This document shows, one piece after another, positions 2,494 to 15,630 of a stretch of 64,000 bases of DNA. The notes under the pieces were generated by a model that saw nothing but the letters and a program-made list of their open reading frames with translations, was not told where the DNA came from and ran no database searches. This DNA is from Thermoanaerobaculia bacterium. GTDB lineage: Bacteria; Acidobacteriota; Thermoanaerobaculia; UBA5066. Position numbers and translations under genes: made by a program. Location: the NCBI GenBank assembly GCA_963816185.1, contig CAWFJJ010000001.1:161224-225223 (forward strand). The letters run 5' to 3'. The first letter of the stretch is position 1. Each line of letters starts with the position of its first letter.

Positions 2494-4039
2494 ATGTCCG
2501 GCTCCCGGATTCTCGTCCTTTTCGCCCTCCTGCTCCTCGGCGCTGGGCGTCCTGCTCGGACTGCCCTCGTCCCTCGCGCCGGCCGCAGTCGTGATCGCCG
2601 TGGCGGCCGTTCTCGTTTTTCTCGCGGCGAGCCGGTCCCCCTCGTCCGCGGGTTCCCGCGCGGAGCCGGTGACGTCCGTGCGCGCGGTCTTCGGGCCGGC
2701 CGTGGACGCGATCGAGGCCGTCGCCGTCTACACGCTGGATCGGGCCGGCCGGATCGGCTACGCGAACAGAGGCGCGCGCCGCGCCCTCGGGATCGAGGAA
2801 CGCGACGTGGAAGGGCACGCCTCTTCGGAGCTGCCCGCCCTCGGCGCCGAGGCGCCCGAGATGATCGAGGGTCTGAACGAGGTCTTCGAGACCGGCCAGG
2901 CTCGAGCCGCTCGGCGGATCCTGCTGCCCGGGGACGGCGCGACGAAGGTCGAGTCGATCGTCTCGATGACGCCTGTCTTGCGGTACGGCAAGGTCGTCGA
3001 GGCCGCCATCTGGCGCGTCGACACGCGCGGTCCGGCAGGCGAGGACGAGCACCTCGCGCGCCTGCTCGATTCGTCGCCCGCGGGCCTCCTCGGCGTGGAC
3101 GCCGTGGGCCGCATCGAGGCGGTGAGCCGCCGGCTCGCGGAGTGGGTGGGGCGCCGCGCGGACGCTCTCGAGGGCCTCGACGTGGAGCGCTCGGAAGTCC
3201 TGCCCGAAGAGCTACGGGCGCTCATCCGCGCGCACGCCGTGAACCGGGCCCCGCAGGGCACGCCGACCACCCCGGTCGAGGAGGACGTCTCTCTCGTCAC
3301 GCCCGAAGGCGTTTCCCGGATGCTGCACGTCGTCGTGACGCCGCGCCCGGGCGGCGGAGCAGACGCCGTCTTTCTCGACGGGAGCTCGCGGCGCCGGCTC
3401 CTTGCCGAGCTGGACGCGGCCCGTCGGGCGCTCGCCGAGGCGCGCGAAGCCGCGGTGGACGTCCTGCAGTCCACGACGCGCGATCTCAAGACGCGCGTTC
3501 AGGAGATCGTGGCGGCGGCACGCCGCGCGGCGGACGAGACTTCCGGTCCGATCCAGCGCGCGCGCGCCGAGGCCGAGCTGAAGGCGACGAGCGACGAGCT
3601 TCTCGCGAGCGTCGACGAGAGCGGACCCCGGGACGCCCGCCGGCCGATCGGTGGCGCAGACGGCCGTCCGCGCGTCCTGCTCGTGGAGGACAACGAGGAA
3701 AATCGCGAGCTTCTCGCCCACATGCTGAGGTCGCGCGGCGCCGAGGTGCTCACGGCGGGCAGCGGTCGCGAGGCCGTGGACGCGGCCGCGGGCTTCCGCT
3801 TCGATTTCGTCCTCCTGGACCTGCACATGCCCGAGATGGACGGCTTCCAGGTGCTGAGGCGGCTGCGCGGCCTGCCGGACGGAGAGCGGTTGCCGGTCAT
3901 CGCGCTCACCGCGCTCACGTCCGACCTCATCAAGGAGCGATGCGAAGCGGAGGGAATGAACGACTTCGTGTCCAAGCCCGTGACGCTCGCGCGCGTCGGG
4001 GAGCTCGTGGCGAAATGGGGGCGTACGGGTCGGACCTGA
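2494..4039 (+). CDS. Membrane-anchored PAS-domain response regulator (REC at C-terminus). It has an apparent 1-nt frameshift near 2545.
   Basis: The ATG at 2494 encodes MSGSRILVLFALLLLGA in frame 1. From ~2545 frame 2 is continuous through two predicted TM helices, then through 2591..4039 with a PAS-like region and a C-terminal receiver (RVLLVEDNEENRELL ... DFVLLDLHMPEMDG ... DFVSKP). Removing one G from the GGG at 2544-2546 joins the frames. Confidence 0.7.
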
Positions 4040-4459
4040 CTACCAGCGCATCCGGTAGAGCATCGCGTAGACGACGACGCCGGTCAGGGAGACGTAGAGC
4101 CAGATCGGCAGCGTGAACCGGGCGAGCCTGCGATGCCGTTCGAACCGCCCGCGCCGGGCGAGGACGAACGTCGCGATCGCGAGCGGCGCGACAACGGCCG
4201 CGAGAACCGTGTGCGTGAAGAGAATGCCGAGATAGAGCGTCCGCGCGCGGCCCGTGCCGGGGAATCGCACGCTTCCGACCTGCGCGTGATAGGCGAGGTA
4301 CGAGACGAGGAAGAGCGTCGAGCACAGGAAGGCCGCCGTCATCGTGCGGCGGTGCGCGGCGATCTGCCGCTTCCGGATGAACGTCCAGCCGACGACGAGG
4401 AGGACGGCGCTCGTCGCGTTGAGGCAGGCGTTCAGCGTCGGCAGGTCGCGGACCGTCAT
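4040..4459 (-). CDS. DUF420 membrane protein (CtaM-like, cytochrome-oxidase associated)
   Basis: C-terminal 139 aa of the 248-aa ORF start at the internal Met (MTVRDLPTLNACLNATSAVLLVVGW ...). It is a four-TM DUF420-like sequence. It overlaps the stop of the upstream permease by 4 nt. Confidence 0.65.
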   Translation of the reverse strand: MTVRDLPTLNACLNATSAVLLVVGWTFIRKRQIAAHRRTMTAAFLCSTLFLVSYLAYHAQVGSVRFPGTGRARTLYLGILFTHTVLAAVVAPLAIATFVLARRGRFERHRRLARFTLPIWLYVSLTGVVVYAMLYRMRW

Positions 4460-5233
4460 CGGGCCCGAGGCTCTCGCGCGGCGGCGAGGCGGGCGGCGGG
4501 GCCCGCGGGAAAGCGCGCGACGACGGCCACGGCGGCCGCGAACATGAGGACGGCGAACGCCGCCGTCACGGCCCACGAGAGCGACGGAGACATCCACGCC
4601 GGCGCGGAGCCGCCGAGGGCCCGGCGCAGAGCCGCCACGCCGTAGGTGAGGGGGTTCACGGCCATCGCCGCGTGCAGCCACGATGGGGCGCCGTCGACCG
4701 GGAAGAAAGCCCCCGAGAGGAGCCACATCGGAATCAGGAAGAGATTCATGATCGCGTGGAAGCCCTGTGTCGATTCGAGCGACCACGCGATCGCGAATCC
4801 GAGGGACGTGAGCGCGAAGGAGAGGACCGCGAGCAGCGCGGCGGCGCCCAGAAGGCCCGGTCCGTCGACCTTGAGGCCGGTCAAAGGCACGAGGAGGAGC
4901 AGGGGAAGGCCCTGCATCAGCCCGAGCGCCGCCCCCCCGAGGATCTTTCCGAGCGCGATCGAGGCGGGAGCAACCGGCGAGACGAGGACTCCCTGCAGGA
5001 AGCCCTCGCGCCGGTCCTCGATGACGGAGATCGTCGCGAAGATCGCGGCGAAGAGGACGACGAGGACGACCGTGCCCGGGAAGAAATAGCCGAACGAGTC
5101 CTCGCGGAACGACCGCGGAAGCCCGAGCCCACGAGGATCCACATGACGAGGGGGGGAGCGACCGCTCCGACGATGCGGCTCTTCTGCCGGAAGAAGCGGA
5201 CGATCTCCCGGCGCGCGAGGGCGAGGGAGGAGC
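4456..5233 (-). CDS. ABC-2 type transporter permease. It has an apparent frameshift at a G7 tract.
   Basis: N-terminus VSSSLALARREIVRFFRQKSRIVGAVAPPLVMWILVGSGF in the frame of ORF 4917..5498. The body (VVLFAAIFATISVIEDRREGFLQGVLVSPV ...) is in the frame of ORF 4456..5142. The junction coincides with the ggggggg run at 5146-5152. The GTG start lies immediately after the ATPase stop. Confidence 0.7.
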
Positions 5234-5244
5234 TCACGGGAACC

Positions 5245-6216
5245 TCATGTTGCGTCTTGCCCGCTCTCCGGCGTGTCCGCCTCGCGGAAGCGTCGGCCCG
5301 TCTTCGCGATGAACACGTCCTCGAGCGAGGGCGCGCCGAGCGTGACGGATTTGAAGGCGCCCGGGAACGCCTCGACGAGACGGGGCACGAACGTGTGCGC
5401 CGCCTTCCGCTCCACCCGGACGGTGGGTCCGACGACGGTGATCCGGCCCGCCTCGGCGCCGAAGCGGCTCTCGATCCCGGCCGCGAGAGCCGGCGCACCG
5501 GTGTCGTCCTTCGCCTCCACCGTCACGACGTCGCCGCCGAGCGTGGCTTTCAGCGCGGCGGGCGTGTCGAGCGCGAGCAGGCGTCCCCGGTCGAGGAGGC
5601 CGATGCGGTGCGCCGCCTCGGCCTCTTCGAAGAGATGCGTCGTCAGGAGGATCGCCGTGCCCGCGCGGGCGAGAACGGCGAGCGCGTCGATGAGATCGCG
5701 CCGGGCGCCGGGGTCGAGACCGGTCGACGGCTCGTCGAGGAGAAGCACGGGCGGAGCGTGAAGAAGCGCTTTGGCGATCTCCACGCGTCGCGCGAGGCCC
5801 CCGGACAAGGTCTCGACGAGATCGCGCGCACGGTCCTCGAGACGGAACATCTCGAGGAGCTCGCGGATGCGCGCGGCGCGCGCGCCCGACGGAAGGCCGT
5901 ACAGGTCGCCCTGGAGCGCGAGGTTCTCCCCGACGGTCAGCTTCTTGTCGAGGCTCGCCGCCTGGAACACGACGCCGAGCCGCCGGCGCACGGCGCGGCG
6001 CGCGGCCGTCGGATCGAGCCCGTCGATGGAGAAGCTCCCCGCGCCCGGAGGCAACAGGGTCGCGAGAATCCGGAAGAGCGTCGTCTTGCCGCCGCCGTTC
6101 GGGCCGAGAAGCGCGAAGATCTCGCCCCGCGGCACCGAAAACGTGACGTCCGTCAGCGCGGCGCGCGCGCCGAAGGCGCGGGAGAGAGAACGGGCTTCGA
6201 CGGCGGGTGGCGTCAC
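5245..6216 (-). CDS. ABC transporter ATP-binding protein
   Basis: 323 aa. Walker A GPNGGGKTT, signature LSGGLARR, Walker B LLLDEP. Confidence 0.9.
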   Translation of the reverse strand: MTPPAVEARSLSRAFGARAALTDVTFSVPRGEIFALLGPNGGGKTTLFRILATLLPPGAGSFSIDGLDPTAARRAVRRRLGVVFQAASLDKKLTVGENLALQGDLYGLPSGARAARIRELLEMFRLEDRARDLVETLSGGLARRVEIAKALLHAPPVLLLDEPSTGLDPGARRDLIDALAVLARAGTAILLTTHLFEEAEAAHRIGLLDRGRLLALDTPAALKATLGGDVVTVEAKDDTGAPALAAGIESRFGAEAGRITVVGPTVRVERKAAHTFVPRLVEAFPGAFKSVTLGAPSLEDVFIAKTGRRFREADTPESGQDAT

Positions 6217-6240
6217 GTTCGCGGTGAGGATTCTCTCGCG

Positions 6241-7122
6241 TCAGACGCGGTCGAGGACGAGAAGGATGAGAATCGCCGGAAGCCAGCCGATCGACGCAAG
6301 AAAGAGCGAGCGGGCACGTCCGTCCGTCGTCTCGCGTGCGAAGGCGAGCGATGCCCGGAGGAAGACGAGCGTCAGGACGAACGCCCCGAGCGCGTACGCG
6401 AAACCGGCCGTTCCCACGAGGGAAGGCAGGAGGCTGATGGGCAGAAGCACGGCCGTCCAGAGAAGCGTCTGCCGGGCCGTCCGCCGCCCGGAGGGGTCGA
6501 TGACGGGGAGGATTCTCACTCCCGCGCGGGCGTAGTCGGCTCGGTGGCGCCACCCGATCGCGAAGAAATGCGGAAGCTGCCAGACGAAGAGGATCGCGAA
6601 GAGCGCGAGGCCCGGAAGGCCGATCGCGCCCGCCGCCGCGGTGTACCCGCCCAAGGGCGGGAGCGCGCCGGGCACGGCCCCGACGACCGTGGAGGCAGGC
6701 GAGCGGACCTTCATCGGCGTGTAGAGGCAGACGTACGAGACGAGCGTGAAGGCGGCGAGGGCGGTCGTCAGAACGTTCGTGAAGAAGAAGAGCTCGGCGA
6801 GGCCCACGACCGAGAGCGCGCCCGCGAAGAAGGCGGCGCCGTGGAGACTGATGCGCCCGGACGGCAGGGGGCGGTCCTGCGTGCGCCTCATCAGGCCGTC
6901 GACGCCCACCTCGCGCACCTGGTTGAAGGCGCTCGTGCCGGAGGCGACGAGAGCGGTCCCGAGGAGCGTGTGGAGAAGGAGCGGCAGGGCGAGGGAGGAC
7001 AGCGGCCCTCTCACCCCCGCGACGAAACCGACGAACGCCGTCATCACGACGAAGACGGTGATGCGCGGCTTCGTGAGGGCGACGTAAGACGCGAACGCGG
7101 AGGAGTTGCGACTCAGGCTCAT
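6241..7122 (-). CDS. ctaB: Protohaem IX farnesyltransferase (haem O synthase)
   Basis: Internal start MSLSRNSSAFASYVALTKPRITVFVV. It is a polytopic UbiA-family sequence. There is an ATGA overlap with ctaA. Confidence 0.85.
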   Translation of the reverse strand: MSLSRNSSAFASYVALTKPRITVFVVMTAFVGFVAGVRGPLSSLALPLLLHTLLGTALVASGTSAFNQVREVGVDGLMRRTQDRPLPSGRISLHGAAFFAGALSVVGLAELFFFTNVLTTALAAFTLVSYVCLYTPMKVRSPASTVVGAVPGALPPLGGYTAAAGAIGLPGLALFAILFVWQLPHFFAIGWRHRADYARAGVRILPVIDPSGRRTARQTLLWTAVLLPISLLPSLVGTAGFAYALGAFVLTLVFLRASLAFARETTDGRARSLFLASIGWLPAILILLVLDRV

Positions 7123-8126
7123 GCGCGCAGGCGGGAGCTTACCGCGTTCGGAAGATTCCGGCAGGCCCCGGCCGAGACCGTGGCGAGGACGCCCGTGACC
7201 CAGCACAGGGCGCCCCCGGCGAGATGGGCGGCCGTCAGGGGCGGCGCTTTTTTCGACCAGATGGAAAGGGCGCCGAGGAGGATCTGGATCGCGACGAGGC
7301 CGGTCCATGTCGCGGCGAATCCGGCGAAAACACCGCTCACCGCCGAGAGTCGTGAGAGCGCGCGCACGGCAGCGAGGACGAGAACGAGAACGACGACGGC
7401 TCCGATCCTGTGCGCGAGGTGGAGGCCTACGCCGCGGCGATGGAGCTCATCCGCGGAGGGCCAGAGGCCGCCGAAGACGGTTGGGAAATCCGGGATCGCG
7501 AGGCCGGCCCCCGTGTGCCGCATGACCGCACCGAGGACGATCTGGACGTAGATCGCCGCGGTGGCGACCAGCGTCCATTGGAAAGCAGACGAGAGGTTTT
7601 TCTGCTGATATTCGGCGGCTGCATTTGCAGCCGTCGATAGCGTCAGATCATTCCACGTCTTCGAGCACATGAGCGCCACTACCGCAGTGAGGGCGAAGAC
7701 GATCTCGGCGAGGGCGGCGTGTGCAGACGAGATCGCCGGAGGCAGAAGAAACAGCACCGTGAGGCCGCCCAGGAGGGCCTGCAGCAAAATCGCTCCAAAC
7801 GCGACGGCGGCGAGGACCTTGACCGCTTTCCTGCCTTCTAAGAAAAAAAGAAACGCGCCCAGCTCCAGACCCACCAATGTGGAGACAGCCGCCGCGATGA
7901 GCCGATGGCCGTGCTCATAGAGGATGCCGCCGACCATCGGCGGCATGAGCTTGCCGTACGAGAGCGGCCAGTCCGGGACGGCGAGACCCGACCCGGTGGA
8001 CGTGACGAGCGCGCCCGCGACGAGGAGCAGGAAGACTCCAAGCGCGACGACGCGCGTTCCGATCCTCAGAATTCCGGCGTTCCGCGCCGCGTGTGCGTCC
8101 CTGTCCTTCGTCCTGTCCGCGCTCAT
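7119..8126 (-). CDS. ctaA: Haem A synthase (CtaA/COX15 family)
   Basis: Eight-TM protein from the internal Met (MSADRTKDR...). It has conserved His-containing helices (YEHGHRLIAA, HAALAE, HLAHRIGAV). Confidence 0.8.
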   Translation of the reverse strand: MSADRTKDRDAHAARNAGILRIGTRVVALGVFLLLVAGALVTSTGSGLAVPDWPLSYGKLMPPMVGGILYEHGHRLIAAAVSTLVGLELGAFLFFLEGRKAVKVLAAVAFGAILLQALLGGLTVLFLLPPAISSAHAALAEIVFALTAVVALMCSKTWNDLTLSTAANAAAEYQQKNLSSAFQWTLVATAAIYVQIVLGAVMRHTGAGLAIPDFPTVFGGLWPSADELHRRGVGLHLAHRIGAVVVLVLVLAAVRALSRLSAVSGVFAGFAATWTGLVAIQILLGALSIWSKKAPPLTAAHLAGGALCWVTGVLATVSAGACRNLPNAVSSRLRA

Positions 8127-8139
8127 CCCGTCTGGGAAA

Positions 8140-8985
8140 TCAGGCTCCGGCCTTGAACGTGAACGCGAGCGGCTTGGACTCGGTCGCGCCGACCGTGACC
8201 TGTTGCGTCTGGGTGCCGAGCTTCTCGTGCCACGCCTCGATCGTGTACGTACCGGCCGGCAGGTTCTTGATCGCGTAGGTGCCATCCGCCGCCGTGACCG
8301 CGAAGAACGGGTGCGCGACGACGCCGCAATAGGCGGACATCCAGCCGTGCACGTCGCACTTGATGTGGATCATGACCTCGGGCTTGTCGAATTTCTTCGT
8401 GTACTTCATCCCCTTGACGGGCATCCCGAGGTTGAAGGACTCGTTCTTCTCCGGAAGGGAATGGATGTTGTGAAGCGTGTCGTCGCTGTTCAGGATGTCG
8501 AGGCTCTGGCCCGCGACCATGCCGAAAACGTGCGGATGGTACGTGCAGCCCCTCTGGTCGATGACGGCCGCGGCGGCGGGCGGAGGATACGTTCCGGAGA
8601 TGCCCGACTTCACGTACACGAATACATTCGCGAGACCCTTGTCGGGGCCGACGACGATCTCTTCCTTCGCCACTTCGCCCGGGTGCTGCTTCGCGCAGAA
8701 CGCGTCGGCAGACATCTTGAACTTCTCGGGCGGCGGCACCGCCCCTTCGAAGACGATCTTGCCGGTGATCGAGGCCGAGCCCGTGGCGCCGGCGGCGGGG
8801 CCGGCGGCGGATGAGGCCGGAGCCGCCGGAGCGGCGGCGCCCTCCGTCGCGGCGCCCTTGGCCCGCGCGGACTTGGGCTGGTCCTCGTCCTCGTCCTTGC
8901 CGCCGCACCCGGCGGCGAGAACGGCCGCGAGCGCGGTGACGGCGCAGACGGAGACGAAGCGGAAGCGGATTGCGGAACCGGACAT
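8140..8985 (-). CDS. Lipoprotein with a cupredoxin-like copper site motif and a C-terminal carboxypeptidase-regulatory-like beta-sandwich
   Basis: Start MSGSAIRFRFVSVCAVTALAAVLAAGC with lipobox LAAGC. GGAGG lies 6 nt upstream of the start. H186 ... C221-x2-H224-x2-M227 (HIKCDVHGWM) has amicyanin/pseudoazurin-like spacing. C-terminus GTYAIKNLPAGTYTIEAW. Confidence 0.55.
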   Translation of the reverse strand: MSGSAIRFRFVSVCAVTALAAVLAAGCGGKDEDEDQPKSARAKGAATEGAAAPAAPASSAAGPAAGATGSASITGKIVFEGAVPPPEKFKMSADAFCAKQHPGEVAKEEIVVGPDKGLANVFVYVKSGISGTYPPPAAAAVIDQRGCTYHPHVFGMVAGQSLDILNSDDTLHNIHSLPEKNESFNLGMPVKGMKYTKKFDKPEVMIHIKCDVHGWMSAYCGVVAHPFFAVTAADGTYAIKNLPAGTYTIEAWHEKLGTQTQQVTVGATESKPLAFTFKAGA

Positions 8986-9042: not shown

Positions 9043-10167
9043 ATGATAGACAATCGTCCGATGCGCGTCGAATTCGCGGTACTCCGGCACGTCGAGATGC
9101 CCCTCAAGTTCCGTTTCCGCACGTCCTTCGGGGAGACGGGCGTGAAGAAGTTCCTCCTCCTCGAGGTCCGCGCCGACGGCCTTTCCGGATGGGGCGAGTG
9201 CGTCGCCGAGGAAGGGCCGTTCTATTCGCCCGAGACGATCTCCACGGCGTCCTCGATCCTCACGGCGTTCCTGCTGCCGCTCGTTCTCGGCAAGTCCGTC
9301 GCGTCTCCCGAGGAGTTCGAGCGTCTCTCCTCGCGCATCCGCGGGAACCGGATGGCGAAAGGCGCCGTCGAGTGCGCGCTCCGTGACCTGTTCGCGAAGG
9401 CGGCCGGCGTCCCCCTGGGGAAGTCGCTCGGGGGCTCGCGCGAGAAGATCGAGGTCGGTGTCTCGCTCGGCATCTCGCCGACGCCGGCGGAGACCGTCGA
9501 GAACGTGAGGAAGCACGTCGAGCAGGGCTATCGCCGCATCAAGCTGAAGATCGAGCCGGGCTCGGATCAGGACCGGCTCTCCGCCGTGCGCGCCGCGTTC
9601 CCGGACATCACGCTCACGGTCGACGCGAACGCCGCCTATACGCCCGCGCAGGCGGACATGCTGCGCGCCCTCGACGCGTTCCGGCTCGACTACATGGAGC
9701 AGCCTCTGCACCACGAGGACCTCGTCGCGCACGCCGAGCTCGCGAGAACGCTGAAGACGCCGATCTGCCTCGACGAGTCGATCCGCTCGGCCGCCGACGC
9801 GAGGGCCGCGATCCAGCTCGGCGCCTGTAAGGTCCTCAACGTCAAGATCGGCCGCGTCGGCGGGCACGGCGAAGCCGTGCGGATTCACGACGCCGCGCGA
9901 GCCGCAGGCGTGCCGGTGTGGTGCGGGGGCATGCTCGAGGCCGGAATCGGTCGCGCCCACAACGTCGCGATCGCGAGCCTGCCGGGCTTTTCGAAGCCGG
10001 GCGACACGTCATCCTCGTCCCGCTACTTCGAGGAGGACATCGTGGCACCCCCGCTCGAAGCCACGGACGGGCTCATGCCCGTGCCGAAGGGGCCGGGCAT
10101 CGGGGTCGCGATCCGGCCGGAGATCCTCTCCCGTGTCACGACGGGAATCCAGGAGCTTCGCGCGTGA
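9043..10167 (+). CDS. Enolase-superfamily N-succinylamino acid racemase / o-succinylbenzoate synthase family enzyme
   Basis: 374 aa. It carries MR/MLE/OSBS hallmark segments (KIEVGVSLG, RIKLKIEPG, TVDANAAY, DYMEQP, CLDES, KIGRVGG). Confidence 0.85.
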   Translation: MIDNRPMRVEFAVLRHVEMPLKFRFRTSFGETGVKKFLLLEVRADGLSGWGECVAEEGPFYSPETISTASSILTAFLLPLVLGKSVASPEEFERLSSRIRGNRMAKGAVECALRDLFAKAAGVPLGKSLGGSREKIEVGVSLGISPTPAETVENVRKHVEQGYRRIKLKIEPGSDQDRLSAVRAAFPDITLTVDANAAYTPAQADMLRALDAFRLDYMEQPLHHEDLVAHAELARTLKTPICLDESIRSAADARAAIQLGACKVLNVKIGRVGGHGEAVRIHDAARAAGVPVWCGGMLEAGIGRAHNVAIASLPGFSKPGDTSSSSRYFEEDIVAPPLEATDGLMPVPKGPGIGVAIRPEILSRVTTGIQELRA

Positions 10168-11306
10168 GCGCGCGCGTCCGCGACCTCGCCGCGCTGTTTG
10201 CCGCGCGTCAGAAGTCGATGCTGTCCGACCTCGAGGCCCTCGTCGTGCGGGAGAGCCCGTCCGGCGAGCCCGCCCTGGTCGGCACCCTCACGCGCTGGAT
10301 CGCGGCGCGCCTCGAAGAGGCTGGAATTCCGGCTTCGGGTGTTCCGTGCGCGGGTCGCGGCGACGCCCTGCTCGCGCGCGCCGGCCCCGAGCGCGGGGGC
10401 ACTCTTCTGCTCGGCCATCTCGACACGGTCTGGCCCGCCGGCACGCTGAAAGGGATTCCGTTTCGCGTCGAGGCCGGCGTCGCGCGGGGGCCGGGCGTCT
10501 TCGACATGAAGGGGGGCATCGCCGTCGCCCTCGCCGTCCTCGAGGCCGTCGCGCATGGAGATGTGACTCCTGCCGGGGGCTTCACGCTCCTCCTGACGCC
10601 GGACGAGGAGGTCGGGACACACGCTTCGCGCGACCTCCTCGTCGCCGAGGCCCTGAAGCGCGACCGGGTGTTCGTCCTCGAGCCGTCGGGCGAGGGCGGT
10701 GCCGCGAAGATCGCACGGAAGGGAGTCGGCCTCGTGGCGGTCCGCTTTTCCGGCGTGGCCGCGCACGCGGGGCTCGAGCCCGAGAAGGGGGCTTCGGCCC
10801 TCCTCGAGATGGCGCGGTTCGCGCTGTATGCCGACGCGCTCGCAGACCTTCCGTCGGGCACCTCGGTCGTGCCGACGGTCGCGGCGTCGGGCACGGTGAC
10901 GAACGTCGTGCCCGAGAGCGCCTCGCTCTCGGTGGATTTCCGGCTCTGGACCCAGGCCGAGGGAGAGCGCGTCCTCGCGGGACTTCGCGCGTACCGTCCG
11001 GGGGACTCGCGGGTAGAGGTCACACTCGACGGCGGCGTCAACCGTCCGCCCATGGAGGCGACCGAAGCGTCACTCGCGCTCCACAGGCGCGCCGCGGCGC
11101 TCGCGAAGACGCTCGGTTTCGACCTCGGGGCGGTGCGCGTCGGCGGAGGTTCCGACGGGAATCTCACGGCCTCCGCGGGCGTCCCGACGCTGGACGGCCT
11201 CGGGCCTTCGGGCGCCGGCGCGCACGCCCGCACGGAGCATCTCCTCGTGGAGGATCTTCCCCGGCGCGCGGCTCTCCTCGCGGGTCTCCTCGAGGATGCG
11301 GCGTGA
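10164..11306 (+). CDS. M20-family amidohydrolase (desuccinylase/deacetylase-like)
   Basis: The GTG start overlaps the preceding stop (GTGA). It has M20 motifs (LLGHLDTVWP, GVFDMKGG, DEEVG) and a C-terminal dimerisation region. Confidence 0.8.
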   Translation: MSARVRDLAALFAARQKSMLSDLEALVVRESPSGEPALVGTLTRWIAARLEEAGIPASGVPCAGRGDALLARAGPERGGTLLLGHLDTVWPAGTLKGIPFRVEAGVARGPGVFDMKGGIAVALAVLEAVAHGDVTPAGGFTLLLTPDEEVGTHASRDLLVAEALKRDRVFVLEPSGEGGAAKIARKGVGLVAVRFSGVAAHAGLEPEKGASALLEMARFALYADALADLPSGTSVVPTVAASGTVTNVVPESASLSVDFRLWTQAEGERVLAGLRAYRPGDSRVEVTLDGGVNRPPMEATEASLALHRRAAALAKTLGFDLGAVRVGGGSDGNLTASAGVPTLDGLGPSGAGAHARTEHLLVEDLPRRAALLAGLLEDAA

Positions 11307-12082
11307 GCGGACGCCTCGTGGTCCGGGAGCTCAGGACCCCGGAGGAATTCATCGAGACGGCGCACGTCTCGAAGGCCGCGTGGGGATTCGCCGAACGTTT
11401 CCTCTCGCCCGCGAGCGACCTCGTCGCGGCCACGCACGCAGGCGGTCTCACGGCCGCTGCGTTCGAGGGGAAGAAGATGCTCGGCTTCGTGCACGGCATC
11501 CCGCGCACGAACGTGGGCGAGCCGTGCCAGCATTCGCACCTCCTCGCCGTCCGGCCCGATGCGCAAGGGCGCGGGCTCGGCGCGACGCTCAAGCTCTTCC
11601 AGCGGGCGTGGTGCCTCGAGCGTGGGATCCGGCTCGTGACCTGGACCTACGACCCGTTCCTGCTGAAGAACGCGAAGCTGAACATCGCGCGGCTGCGCGC
11701 GACGGTGCGGACCCTCCTGCCGGATTTCTACGGCCACATGGGCGGCATCTACGCCGGCCTGCCGACGGACCGGTTCGAGGTGAACTGGCGCCTCGACGAT
11801 CCGCTCGTCGAGAGCGCGGCGCGGGGCGAGGAGCCGCCTCCGGACGGCACGGCCGGCGCGCCGGCGGTGACCCGGCCAGGGCAGATTCCCGAAGCAAGGC
11901 GGGTTCTCCTTCCGTTCCTCGCGGACGCGCCCCGCGTCTATCGCACCGATCCGAAGCGGAGCCTCGCCGCGCGCAGGAAGTTCCGGAGGCTGGCCCTGGC
12001 CCTGTTCGCGGCGGGCTACGAGGTCACGGACGTGACGGCCCGGGACGGCGAGCCCGCGTACGTCCTCGACCGGGCCGGGTGA
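11303..12082 (+). CDS. GNAT-family acyltransferase
   Basis: The GTG start overlaps the M20 stop (GTGA). It has a GNAT core (HSHLLAVRPDAQGRGLGATLKLFQRAW). It lies in the C-terminal part of ORF 10133..12082. Confidence 0.65.
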   Translation: MSGRLVVRELRTPEEFIETAHVSKAAWGFAERFLSPASDLVAATHAGGLTAAAFEGKKMLGFVHGIPRTNVGEPCQHSHLLAVRPDAQGRGLGATLKLFQRAWCLERGIRLVTWTYDPFLLKNAKLNIARLRATVRTLLPDFYGHMGGIYAGLPTDRFEVNWRLDDPLVESAARGEEPPPDGTAGAPAVTRPGQIPEARRVLLPFLADAPRVYRTDPKRSLAARRKFRRLALALFAAGYEVTDVTARDGEPAYVLDRAG

Positions 12083-12108: not shown

Positions 12109-12396
12109 ATGAAGAAGATTCTTCGAGTGCTGGTTCCCGCTGCCTTTCTGCTGCTCGCTCCCGTCTTCGCGCAGGCGGCCGTCGACGACTTCCAGGTGAC
12201 CGGAAACGTCACGGAGAAGACCGCCGACTCGATCACGGTCATGAAGGGCAAGGAGCGCTTCCAGATCGCGATCGACAAGGACACGAAGATGACCGGCGAC
12301 GTGAAGGTCGGCGGCAAGGTCACGATCAAGTACAAGATGCACGCGAGCTCGATCGAGGCGAAGGAAGCGGCGGCGAAGCCTGCCAAGAAGAAATAA
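12109..12396 (+). CDS. Small secreted Lys-rich protein
   Basis: AGGAGG lies upstream of ATG 12109. Signal peptide MKKILRVLVPAAFLLLAPVFAQA. 95 aa. Confidence 0.5.
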   Translation: MKKILRVLVPAAFLLLAPVFAQAAVDDFQVTGNVTEKTADSITVMKGKERFQIAIDKDTKMTGDVKVGGKVTIKYKMHASSIEAKEAAAKPAKKK

Positions 12397-13967: not shown

Positions 13968-15630
13968 GTGCTCGTTCTCAACGTGCGCGTGCCCGGAGAG
14001 CCGGCGCGCCGCATCCGGCTCGACCGCCCGGTCCTGACGCTCGGCCGCTCCTCCACGAACGACGTCCCCCTCGGGGATCGGACGCTCTCGCGCGTGCACG
14101 CACGAATCGAGGGCGTCCTCGACGGCGGGCCGATCCGTCTCGTGGACCTCGGATCGCGGAACGGCACGTCCCTGAACGGCTCGCGCATCACGGAGCCGAC
14201 GCCGCTTTCGGCCGGGGACCGCATCCAGCTCGGCGAGACGCTCGTGGAGATCATCGAGGAATCCACGACCCGCGTCGTCATCGATCCCTTCGGGGAAGAG
14301 AGCTCCAAGAGAACGACGTTCCTGCAGTCCTCCAAGGATCTCCTGCGTCCGCACAAGCAGGAGCGGGACTCGAAGCTCGGGGCCGAGGAGCTCGCGCGCC
14401 TGAACGCGTCGCTCCGGATGCTCAACGAGATCTCCGTCGAGCTTCTCGGCGATATCCCGTTGAACCGCCTGCTCGAGCTGATCCTCGAAAAGACCTTCAC
14501 GTTCCTGCAGCCCGACCGCGGTCTCCTGATGCTCGCGGACGAGCACGGGGAGCTGAAACCGGAGAAGGTGAAGTATGCCCCGGGCGTCGACCCGTCCGAC
14601 ATCCGGCTCAGCAAGACGCTCATCCAGTCGGTGGTGGAAAAGAAGAACGGCGTCCTCCTGATCGACGCGGCGACGGACGCCGGTCTCGGCGCCGCCGAGT
14701 CGATCCGGATCCAGGGCATCACGTCCTGCATGGCGGCCCCTCTTTTCGTCGAGGACAGGGTCATCGGACTCATCTACCTCGAGGTGCGGCTCGGGCGGAA
14801 GAGCTTCAGCGAGGAGGACCTGCGCCTCCTGACCTCCCTCGCGAACACGTCCGCCATCAAGATCCAGAATCTGCGCCTGCAGGAAGGCGCCGCGGCCCGG
14901 AAGCGCATCGAGAGCCGAGATGGCTCTCGCGTGGGACATCCAGCGGCGCCTGCTGCCGGAAGCCGAGCCCATCCTGCCGCACACGGAGCTCCTCGGCCGG
15001 ACGGTTCCGGCGAGCACGGTCTCGGGGGACTATTACGACTTCTTCGAGCGGGGGGACAAGTCGCTCGACGTCGTCGTCGCGGACGTGAGCGGAAAAGGCA
15101 TGGGCGCCTCGATTCTCGCGGCCTCGGTGCAGGCCGCGTTCCAGGCGTGGGCCGGAGAGCACTTCCCGCCGGATCGGCTCTGCTCGCGGCTCAACGAGAT
15201 GGTCTTCCGGCGCACGAGCCCGGAGAAGTTCATCACGTTCTTCCTCGCGCTCTACGATCCCGAGTCGGGCTCCGTCGTGTTCACGAACGCGGGTCACAAC
15301 CCGGGCATTCTCGTGCGGGCCGGCGGCGCCACGGAGCTGCTCGGCGCCCACGGGCCTCCGCTCGGGCTCTTTCCGGGAAAGACCTACGGTTCGGGGACCT
15401 TCACGCTGGAGACGGGCGACGTCCTCGCCCTCTACACCGACGGCGTGACGGAGGCCGCGAATCCCGAGGACGAGGAATTCGGGACGCCGCGCCTCGTCGA
15501 GACGCTCGTGAGGGCGCGCCGGGGCTCAGTCGCGCAGATCGAAGCCGAGGTCGGCGCGGCTCTCACGGCGTTTACCGCCGGCACGCCTTTCGGCGATGAC
15601 CGGACGTTCGTCGTACTGAAGCGAACCTAG
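13968..15630 (+). CDS. FHA-GAF-PP2C (SpoIIE-type) serine/threonine phosphatase. It has an apparent +1 frameshift near 14900.
   Basis: ORF 13968..15599 carries an FHA domain ([13 protein letters not shown] ... SRVHARI ... [10 protein letters not shown]) and a GAF domain. ORF 14920..15630 in the +1 frame carries the PP2C domain ([14 protein letters not shown] ... GDYYDFF ... [13 protein letters not shown] ... [11 protein letters not shown]). The frame-0 continuation is low-complexity. Confidence 0.75.

Follow-up and report, generated by a model that had tools for sequence, protein, structure and literature searches.

A haem A biogenesis cluster of Thermoanaerobaculia with a putative blue-copper lipoprotein and an optional ABC-2 exporter

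Which roles do an uncharacterized lipoprotein and an exporter play when their genes are packed together with those for haem A synthesis and cytochrome oxidase maturation? This question is raised by a 64,000-nucleotide stretch of a Thermoanaerobaculia (Acidobacteriota) genome (GenBank assembly GCA_963816185.1, contig CAWFJJ010000001.1, positions 161,224 to 225,223 of the forward strand), in the following called the window, where open reading frame (ORF) and family searches place a cluster of six genes (cta cluster) at 4040–8985 on the minus strand. Taken together, the findings presented here indicate that the cluster probably equips an A-family, CuA-containing haem-copper oxidase, encoded outside of the 64-kb window, with a blue-copper electron carrier and an optional exporter. 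The six genes, all of which had already been listed in an initial annotation and were recovered at the same positions and on the same strand, are:

8140–8985, minus strand: lipoprotein, 281 amino acids (aa), start codon ATG at 8985 with GGAGG upstream
7119–8126, minus strand: ctaA, haem A synthase, 335 aa (PF02628)
6241–7122, minus strand: ctaB, haem O synthase, 293 aa (TIGR01473)
5245–6216, minus strand: ATPase of an ATP-binding cassette (ABC) transporter, 323 aa, with DrrA-type C-terminal extension (family profiles)
4456–5237, minus strand: ABC-2 permease, 260 aa with a missing base restored (PF01061)
4040–4459, minus strand: DUF420/CtaM-family membrane protein, 139 aa (PF04238)

The family matches of ctaA, ctaB and DUF420 support the earlier interpretation as a haem A and oxidase biogenesis cluster. 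CtaB is assigned to the haem O synthases by TIGR01473 (264 bits versus a cut-off of 210.3, residues 12–291) and PF01040 (168 bits), while CtaA matches PF02628 with 108.2 bits (threshold 29.9) in two stretches, the best at residues 69–311, and is likewise a member of its family. From the established function of these families, CtaB would convert haem B to haem O by farnesylation and CtaA would oxidize haem O to haem A. The sole NCBIfam match of CtaA is weak and concerns an alphaproteobacterial model (33 bits versus 550), as expected for a CtaA of a different class. In Bacillus subtilis CtaA, the Cys pair of loop 1 matters for activity. As read from its sequence, the CtaA of the window lacks such a pair in both of its extracytoplasmic loops, corresponding to class D or type 1.5 in the published scheme (PMC8239418), and enzymes of this Cys-less class may depend on another redox arrangement. 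DUF420, finally, is covered over its full length by PF04238 (152.6 bits, profile positions 1–130 of 130) and belongs to the CtaM family. In agreement with what had been stated for the Firmicutes protein, CtaM is required for active haem A oxidases, as shown for Staphylococcus aureus and B. subtilis only, where aa3 and caa3 oxidases depend on it for activity at a stage following haem insertion (PMC4958251, PMC9145763, PMC13344008); recent work also connects it with copper efflux and with the trafficking of copper to oxidases (PMC13344008). By homology to these Bacillus and Staphylococcus proteins, DUF420 would have a late, copper-related role in the maturation of the oxidase.

The lipoprotein had been noted for a type-1-copper-like ligand set, His...Cys-x2-His-x2-Met, and a CarbopepD_reg-like domain, and both are borne out by the present analysis. 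Its relevant features are:

8905–8985, minus strand: signal peptide with lipobox-like LAAG/C, Cys27 at 8905–8907
8470–8472, minus strand: putative type-1 copper ligand His172 within NSDxTLHNIH (conservation)
8356–8358, minus strand: putative type-1 copper ligand Cys210 (conservation)
8347–8349, minus strand: putative type-1 copper ligand His213 (conservation)
8338–8340, minus strand: putative type-1 copper ligand Met216 (conservation)

Two alignments were used for assessing conservation, one of 42 close homologues, which also served as input for the AlphaFold2 model, and one of 20 homologues from several phyla sharing 35–54% identity. In both, His172, the adjacent Asn173, Cys210, His213 and Met216 are invariant, and the four ligands are kept in about 30 of 33 distant homologues. 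His175, Asp168, Asn185 and Gln144 as well as an extra pair, Cys97/Cys147, are further invariant residues. The motif C-x2-H-x2-M occurs only once in the six-frame translation of the window, at 8358, and because of its conservation in homologues it is not a chance match. At the N-terminus, Cys27 and Gly28 are invariant in the 42 homologues, although the strict lipobox [LVI][ASTVI][GAS]C is not matched due to Ala at position –3. A low-complexity linker reaching to about residue 63 is followed by beta strands (71–127), the cupredoxin domain (about 138–232) and a CarboxypepD_reg-like beta-sandwich (229–276). Of these, Pfam detects CarboxypepD_reg alone, at residues 229–276, and no cupredoxin family even at E ≤ 10. 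Similarly, a profile search of PDB sequences gave beta-sandwich matches to the C-terminal domain alone and no cupredoxin, and phmmer returned a single non-significant match, 9cck_A (E = 0.12), weakly aligning KCDVHGWM to CTLHPWM of its cupredoxin domain. Since Pfam detects no such domain, the cupredoxin assignment draws on the ligand pattern and the structure model. In this model (mean predicted local distance difference test score, pLDDT, of 77.8), residues 1–63 comprising signal peptide and linker are disordered, whereas most 10-residue blocks from residue 71 on exceed 85 and block means lie between 83 and 98 over residues 131–280. Foldseek searches against the PDB retrieved cupredoxins with a probability of 1.0 and target-normalized template modelling scores of 0.56–0.74, with the type-1 copper domain of NirK, amicyanin, plastocyanin and pseudoazurin at the top and a Nitrosopumilus cupredoxin among the others. 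A multicopper oxidase domain and an uncharacterized Cupredoxin_1 protein from Bacillus anthracis are also among the 50 matches listed. Accordingly, a cupredoxin domain with a metal site, as supposed before, is confidently modelled and its ligands are conserved down to 35% identity; the protein is predicted to adopt the Greek-key cupredoxin fold, in which the conserved type-1 ligands would form a copper site.

Judged from the sequence, this site appears to be of the electron-transfer and not of the chaperone type. The spacing of 38 residues between the His and Cys ligands and the C-x2-H-x2-M loop are similar to those of amicyanin. A regular-expression search of the lipoprotein found neither the PCuAC motif H(M)x10Mx21HxM nor CxxC or CxxxC. 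Gene neighbourhoods point in the same direction. A scan of metagenome contigs with the alignment of the 20 diverse homologues yielded 80 further loci (individual loci are cited by L numbers), 51 of which extend at least 900 nt beyond the lipoprotein gene. There, the gene that follows within 600 nt is ctaA in 28 cases, coxII in 10, ctaB in three, coxI in two and an ABC ATPase in one. As ctaA, ctaB, coxII or coxI thus comes next in 43 of these 51 loci, a role as electron carrier for the oxidase is the most likely one for the lipoprotein. Tandem arrangements of two or three copies are often found immediately 5' of coxII, as in L075 (1440–4023), L093, L095, L123 and L147, and tandem copies are likewise present in L088 and L138, where the available sequence is too short to reveal what follows. 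The COX2 protein encoded beside the lipoprotein gene in L163 bears the CuA motif CAELCGLAHYRM and has no fused cytochrome c domain, and therefore requires an external periplasmic electron donor. As a putative lipid-anchored blue-copper protein at the outer face of the membrane, the lipoprotein would deliver electrons to the oxidase.

Alternatively, the lipoprotein could be a copper chaperone or handling protein for oxidase assembly, resembling PCuAC, NosL, CupA or CopI. Some copper chaperones indeed use cupredoxin folds, the gene sits with biogenesis and not with structural genes in the window and in the 28 loci continuing with ctaA, and the invariant residues His175, Asp168, Asn185 and Gln144 could form a second site. 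Nevertheless, this role is unlikely: classical blue-copper proteins of electron transfer have the same ligand set and loop, the chaperone motifs are missing, the 50 Foldseek matches listed are blue-copper proteins, copper-enzyme domains and the Cupredoxin_1 protein without any PCuAC or NosL, and where the operon does include coxII, the lipoprotein gene directly precedes it, often in multiple copies. Lipoprotein paralogues devoid of the Cys ligand (SANGHEWM or GINGHEWM replacing KCDVHGWM) were observed at L043:11984–12529 and L057:11863–12498; they also lack the Asn following the first His and are encoded just downstream of DUF420.

Among the 23 lipoprotein loci offering at least 3.5 kb of downstream sequence, ctaB is found in 20, DUF420 in 13 and the ABC pair in four. 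The conserved core is the series lipoprotein-ctaA-ctaB-DUF420, and the ABC pair, often accompanied by SCO1, is an optional insert, as it is present in only four of these 23 lipoprotein-anchored loci. For examining the linkage from the side of the transporter, 80 loci from species-representative genomes were collected by permease alignment (identity 49–97%), covering about ten phyla: Acidobacteriota (five classes or orders), Elusimicrobiota, Planctomycetota, Verrucomicrobiota, Bacteroidota, Myxococcota and other "delta" lineages, Binatia, Poribacteria, NC10 and Latescibacterota. These were searched on the same strand and within 6 kb with the proteins of the window and with SCO1 from L002, while clustering of their ORFs was noisy because of spurious high-GC ORFs and served only for spotting coxI, coxII and coxIII families. 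In 47 of the 55 loci with both flanks available, ctaA, ctaB, SCO1 or DUF420 is found near the permease, so that the supposed phyletic linkage of the ABC pair to ctaAB holds and extends to SCO1, DUF420 and cox genes. Upstream of the permease, ctaB (43/59) and ctaA (36/59) prevail, downstream DUF420 (49/67) and SCO1 (37/67), the usual order being lipoprotein-ctaA-ctaB-ATPase-permease-(SCO1)-DUF420. While L001 shows all six genes of the window in unchanged order, SCO1 is inserted ahead of DUF420 in L002. Independent Pfam labels reveal the order lipoprotein-COX2-COX1-CtaA-CtaB-COX4_pro-COX3-ABC-ABC2-...-DUF420 in L163 and L164, with overlapping genes on an Acidobacteria-like 200-kb contig, and a CtaA/CtaB fusion followed by ABC, ABC2 and SCO1 in L165, whereas in Poribacteria the arrangement is lipoprotein-ABC-ABC2-coxII-coxI. 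The fusion gene of L165 (6062–7975) encodes 637 aa. The complete super-operon of L163 (1670–11587) reads lipoprotein-COX2-COX1-CtaA-CtaB-63 aa-COX4_pro-COX3-ABC-ABC2-167 aa-87 aa-DUF420-DUF374, where the 167-aa product appears thioredoxin/Sco-like by eye, without a CxxxC motif.

This linkage bears on the possibility that the ABC pair is merely a general drug or lipid efflux pump travelling with cta genes and having no role for the oxidase. Such a pump would be consistent with the best family matches of both subunits, which are the DrrA and DrrB drug-resistance subfamilies, with the frequent occurrence of the module without the pair and with the eight of 55 relatives devoid of a cta, SCO1 or DUF420 neighbour. 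However, the association persists over about ten phyla, in several gene orders and with translational overlaps, and once the pair is placed between COX3 and DUF420. Moreover, of the eight exceptions, L052 and L081 adjoin respiratory genes resembling those of alternative complex III by eye. Hence, an unrelated efflux function is very improbable.

In more specific terms, the ATPase has its best NCBIfam match in DrrA (TIGR01188) with 258.4 bits, below the cut-off of 312.45, and the permease has its best subfamily match in DrrB (TIGR01247) with 133.4 bits, below 223.05. In Pfam, the permease surpasses the thresholds of ABC2_membrane (PF01061, 83 bits versus 26.9) and ABC2_membrane_3 (PF12698) only, reaching 21.2 against a threshold of 27.2 with PF12679. 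The closest solved relatives of the ATPase are the nucleotide-binding domains of ABCA3, ABCA4, ABCA7 and ABCA1 and, over the full length, the Thermotoga ABC-2 ATPase 4yer, while a permease profile search of the PDB matched an ABCG-type membrane domain and no NosY or CcmB chain. By these matches, the pair is classified as a DrrAB/ABCA-like type V (ABC-2) exporter outside the DrrA and DrrB subfamily thresholds. Two family resemblances suggested initially are not upheld. Relationship to NosFY-NosL is contradicted by the missing NosY signal, by the absence of NosD and nosZ, by a lipoprotein that is a cupredoxin and not of NosL or PCuAC type, and by neighbours that are cta, cox and SCO1 genes. A CcmAB-like haem exporter is dismissed at the family level, as CcmB is missing from the Pfam, NCBIfam and PDB matches and ccm genes from the annotated neighbourhoods. 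A family-specific motif, S-x-Q-G-F-His161-A-x-Met164 (residues 156–164), is located at the predicted cytoplasmic end of the fifth transmembrane segment of the permease. Among relatives of at most 62% identity, His161 is kept in 64 of 64 and Met164 in 61 of 64, and these residues are candidate substrate ligands that could bind either haem iron or Cu(I).

Consequently, two kinds of cargo have to be considered. ATPase and permease would form a dedicated, albeit optional, accessory moving or handing over a hydrophobic cofactor. The foremost candidate is farnesylated haem O or A, to be transferred from the cytoplasmic leaflet, where CtaB would release it, to CtaA and CoxI on the outer side. This tentative preference derives from the lipid-like molecules handled by the transporter class and from the position of the pair, usually following ctaB; to our knowledge, no protein has been assigned to the movement of haem O and A between CtaB, CtaA and subunit I. 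Almost as likely is a function on the copper side, in itself doubtful, where the exporter together with SCO1, DUF420/CtaM and perhaps the lipoprotein would drive copper delivery to CuA and CuB, either by exporting Cu(I) or as an ATP-driven mechanical device in the manner of NosFY for NosD/NosL. The frequent succession of permease, SCO1 and DUF420 is in favour of copper, as are seven loci with permease, SCO1 and DUF420 in the absence of ctaAB, the position of the lipoprotein gene immediately 5' of the ATPase in Poribacteria and the suitability of the conserved His161/Met164 pair for Cu(I); a role in copper efflux and trafficking to oxidases has besides been proposed for CtaM (PMC13344008). On the other hand, neither a partner resembling NosD nor a family signal for NosY is seen, the type-1 site of the lipoprotein is of the electron-transfer kind and lacks a chaperone motif, and presence of ABC pair and SCO1 across clusters (27/21 versus 3/6) is not significantly associated (Fisher p = 0.28). 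In addition, we know of no ABC-2 or type V exporter pumping a metal ion. The seven loci just mentioned (L050, L057, L063, L064, L067, L070 and L072), belonging to Tepidisphaeraceae, Phycisphaerales and Verrucomicrobiota, also have no ABC ATPase gene adjoining that of the permease, so that the ATPase must be encoded elsewhere. In six of them SCO1 and then DUF420 follow the permease, while in L070 SCO1 follows and DUF420 lies about 7 kb off.

The permease gene is not one intact ORF but is broken by a single-base deletion, which had been missed initially:

5110–5114, minus strand: frame-breaking 1-nt deletion in the permease gene (comparison with relatives)

Residues 1–42 are encoded in one frame and the remaining approximately 218 in another. 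Compared with the intact 260-aa orthologue of L001, one base is missing at about position 5112, where the window reads TTCCGCGG-TCG and L001 TTCCGCGGCTCC; relatives have CGCGGCTCC or CGGGGATCT in place of CGCGG-TCG. In the other close relatives examined, the permease is continuous with about 260 aa. A second gene is affected as well, namely that for an FHA-GAF-SpoIIE/PP2C phosphatase (13968–15621, plus strand) which is split into 13968–14912 and 14899–15621, whereas its orthologue in L001 is intact (553 aa). Frame breaks hence concern two of the 18 genes within 20 kb. Since this second, unrelated gene nearby is also broken, an assembly error is favoured over targeted decay, and the break in the permease probably represents an indel in the assembly. 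If the frameshift were genuine, the exporter would be a decaying pseudogene in this organism, for which the confinement of the deletion to the window sequence among the close relatives examined could be put forward. Such decay is not likely, however, considering the broken phosphatase gene 9 kb away and the remainder of the permease, which is free of stop codons and 98% identical to the reconstructed protein. Furthermore, several of the close relatives are metagenome-assembled genomes (MAGs) with record names like contig_12409, a naming we take to be typical of indel-prone long-read assemblers. Programmed frameshifting was considered less plausible and rejected, as the relatives examined have one continuous frame and the second gene nearby is broken, too.

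Several observations weigh against an operon devoted to supplying an A-family oxidase with carrier and exporter. No oxidase structural gene and no SCO1 is present within the window, and the target enzyme is therefore a deduced one. The ABC pair is missing from most of the lipoprotein-ctaA-ctaB-DUF420 clusters and, consequently, is not essential to the module; if the frame break were real, the exporter would be inactive in this organism. As the lipoprotein gene is always the first of its operon, its closeness to ctaA or coxII may be a matter of position and not of partnership. With regard to the cargo, the results obtained here fit both haem and copper, and the seven permease loci without ctaAB or adjacent ATPase fit copper at least as well as haem.

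As to the architecture of the locus, the tight packing noted before is evident. The reported predominance of 4-nt overlaps, in contrast, applies to two of the five junctions only, ctaA/ctaB and permease/DUF420, where ATGA overlaps are found, while the other three are gaps of 13, 24 and 7 nt. Upstream of the first gene lies the sole sigma-70-like match of the cluster region:

9043–9071, minus strand: sigma-70-like promoter match upstream of the lipoprotein gene (9 of 12 positions, consensus match)

No terminator-like site was found inside the cluster on the minus strand, and no Rfam family was matched between 3500 and 9500. With genes packed on one strand behind a single promoter-like site and without a terminator in between, a single operon is the simplest reading. 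The cluster is bordered at its lipoprotein end by a divergent enolase-superfamily gene (9043–10167, plus strand) and at its DUF420 end by a convergent PAS/response-regulator gene ending at 4039. The divergent gene is the first of a three-gene unit (9043–12073, plus strand) encoding an MR_MLE enolase-superfamily enzyme, an M20 peptidase and a GNAT-like acetyltransferase, which adjoins the cta cluster in L001 and L002 as well. Also kept in these two loci is a small secreted protein of 96 aa (12109–12393, plus strand) with a signal peptide and a Lys-rich tail and without a Pfam family. The window has a G+C content of about 68–72%, finds its best protein matches in Thermoanaerobaculia and is collinear with several Thermoanaerobaculia MAGs at 87–92% nucleotide identity, being identical to none.

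Compared with known systems, the cta cluster shares the CtaA, CtaB and DUF420/CtaM families with the ctaA-ctaB-ctaM set of Bacillota (B. subtilis and S. aureus), and the tendency of ctaM to lie beside ctaA or ctaB, found in 79 of 120 genomes (PMC4958251), is common to both. It differs by the Cys-less class D/type 1.5 CtaA, the cupredoxin lipoprotein and the ABC-2 exporter, to which relatives add SCO1; the Bacillota assembly set has been reviewed without the two latter components of the window (PMC9145763). Amicyanin, plastocyanin and pseudoazurin, sharing the cupredoxin fold, the His...Cys-x2-His-x2-Met ligands and the Asn after the first His, are the closest structural analogues of the lipoprotein, which is distinguished from them by lacking sequence-family detection and by its predicted lipid anchor, the CarboxypepD_reg-like domain, Cys97/Cys147 and His175. 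In addition, the genomic association is with ctaA and coxII and not with methylamine dehydrogenase or photosynthesis. The closest functional analogue is AcoP from Acidithiobacillus ferrooxidans, a membrane-associated single-copper cupredoxin tied to an aa3-type oxidase, which interacts with both the oxidase and cytochrome c by binding and keeps the former active (PMC4059628). Unlike the lipoprotein, AcoP has a long C-x6-H-x4-M loop and a green copper site and belongs to the iron oxidation chain of an acidophile (PMC4059628), and it is not among the 50 Foldseek matches listed.

For the exporter, NosDFY-NosL provides a common theme only, that is, an ABC ATPase and an ABC-2-type permease associated with a copper lipoprotein and a copper enzyme, whereas the window has no NosD, nosZ or NosY signal and its lipoprotein is folded as a cupredoxin and not like NosL. 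Both subunits have their best profile matches among DrrAB/ABCA-type exporters, with which the ATPase shares its DrrA-like C-terminal extension; however, the window proteins score below threshold, reside in the context of oxidase biogenesis and not in antibiotic or lipid clusters, and the permease has its own His/Met motif. The likeness to CcmAB consists of an ABC system for haem handling without nutrient import, but the window shows neither a CcmB match nor ccmC-H neighbours. For the mycobacterial ABC-2 system Rv1456c-58c, a link to ctaA was not confirmed; the papers found regard Rv1456c as a permease and associate its operon with MptB and the export of lipoglycans.

While the haem A genes and CtaM are ordinary constituents, the association of an ABC-2 exporter and the lipoprotein with oxidase genes seems to be undescribed: no paper linking an ABC-2 or other ABC transporter to ctaAB, Sco1 or DUF420 was found in the open-access literature, and a transporter is mentioned neither in the review of bacterial oxidase assembly factors (PMC9145763) nor in the text of a 2026 synteny study of haem A synthases. 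According to the former, oxidase assembly can be expected to involve additional proteins that have yet to be identified (PMC9145763), and elucidation of the copper route to the oxidase is still under way (PMC13344008). Two uncharacterized proteins are genetically tied to oxidase and haem A genes in about ten mostly uncultured phyla. A farther-reaching and rather speculative interpretation would combine both of them, with the ABC pair as dedicated cofactor translocase of oxidase assembly, either flipping haem O/A or energizing copper hand-over to Sco1 and CtaM, and the lipoprotein as a widespread new family of oxidase partners. In that case, the latter could be the physiological aa3 donor in Acidobacteriota, Planctomycetota, Verrucomicrobiota and allied phyla and might even provide the Cys-less class D haem A synthase with its missing redox partner. 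For annotation, the gain would be in replacing the current labels "carboxypeptidase regulatory-like domain protein" and "ABC transporter permease", the former covering a putative blue-copper protein that current domain libraries miss as a cupredoxin. ABC-2 exporter and lipoprotein are, therefore, candidates for missing assembly steps and for the aa3 electron donor in these phyla.

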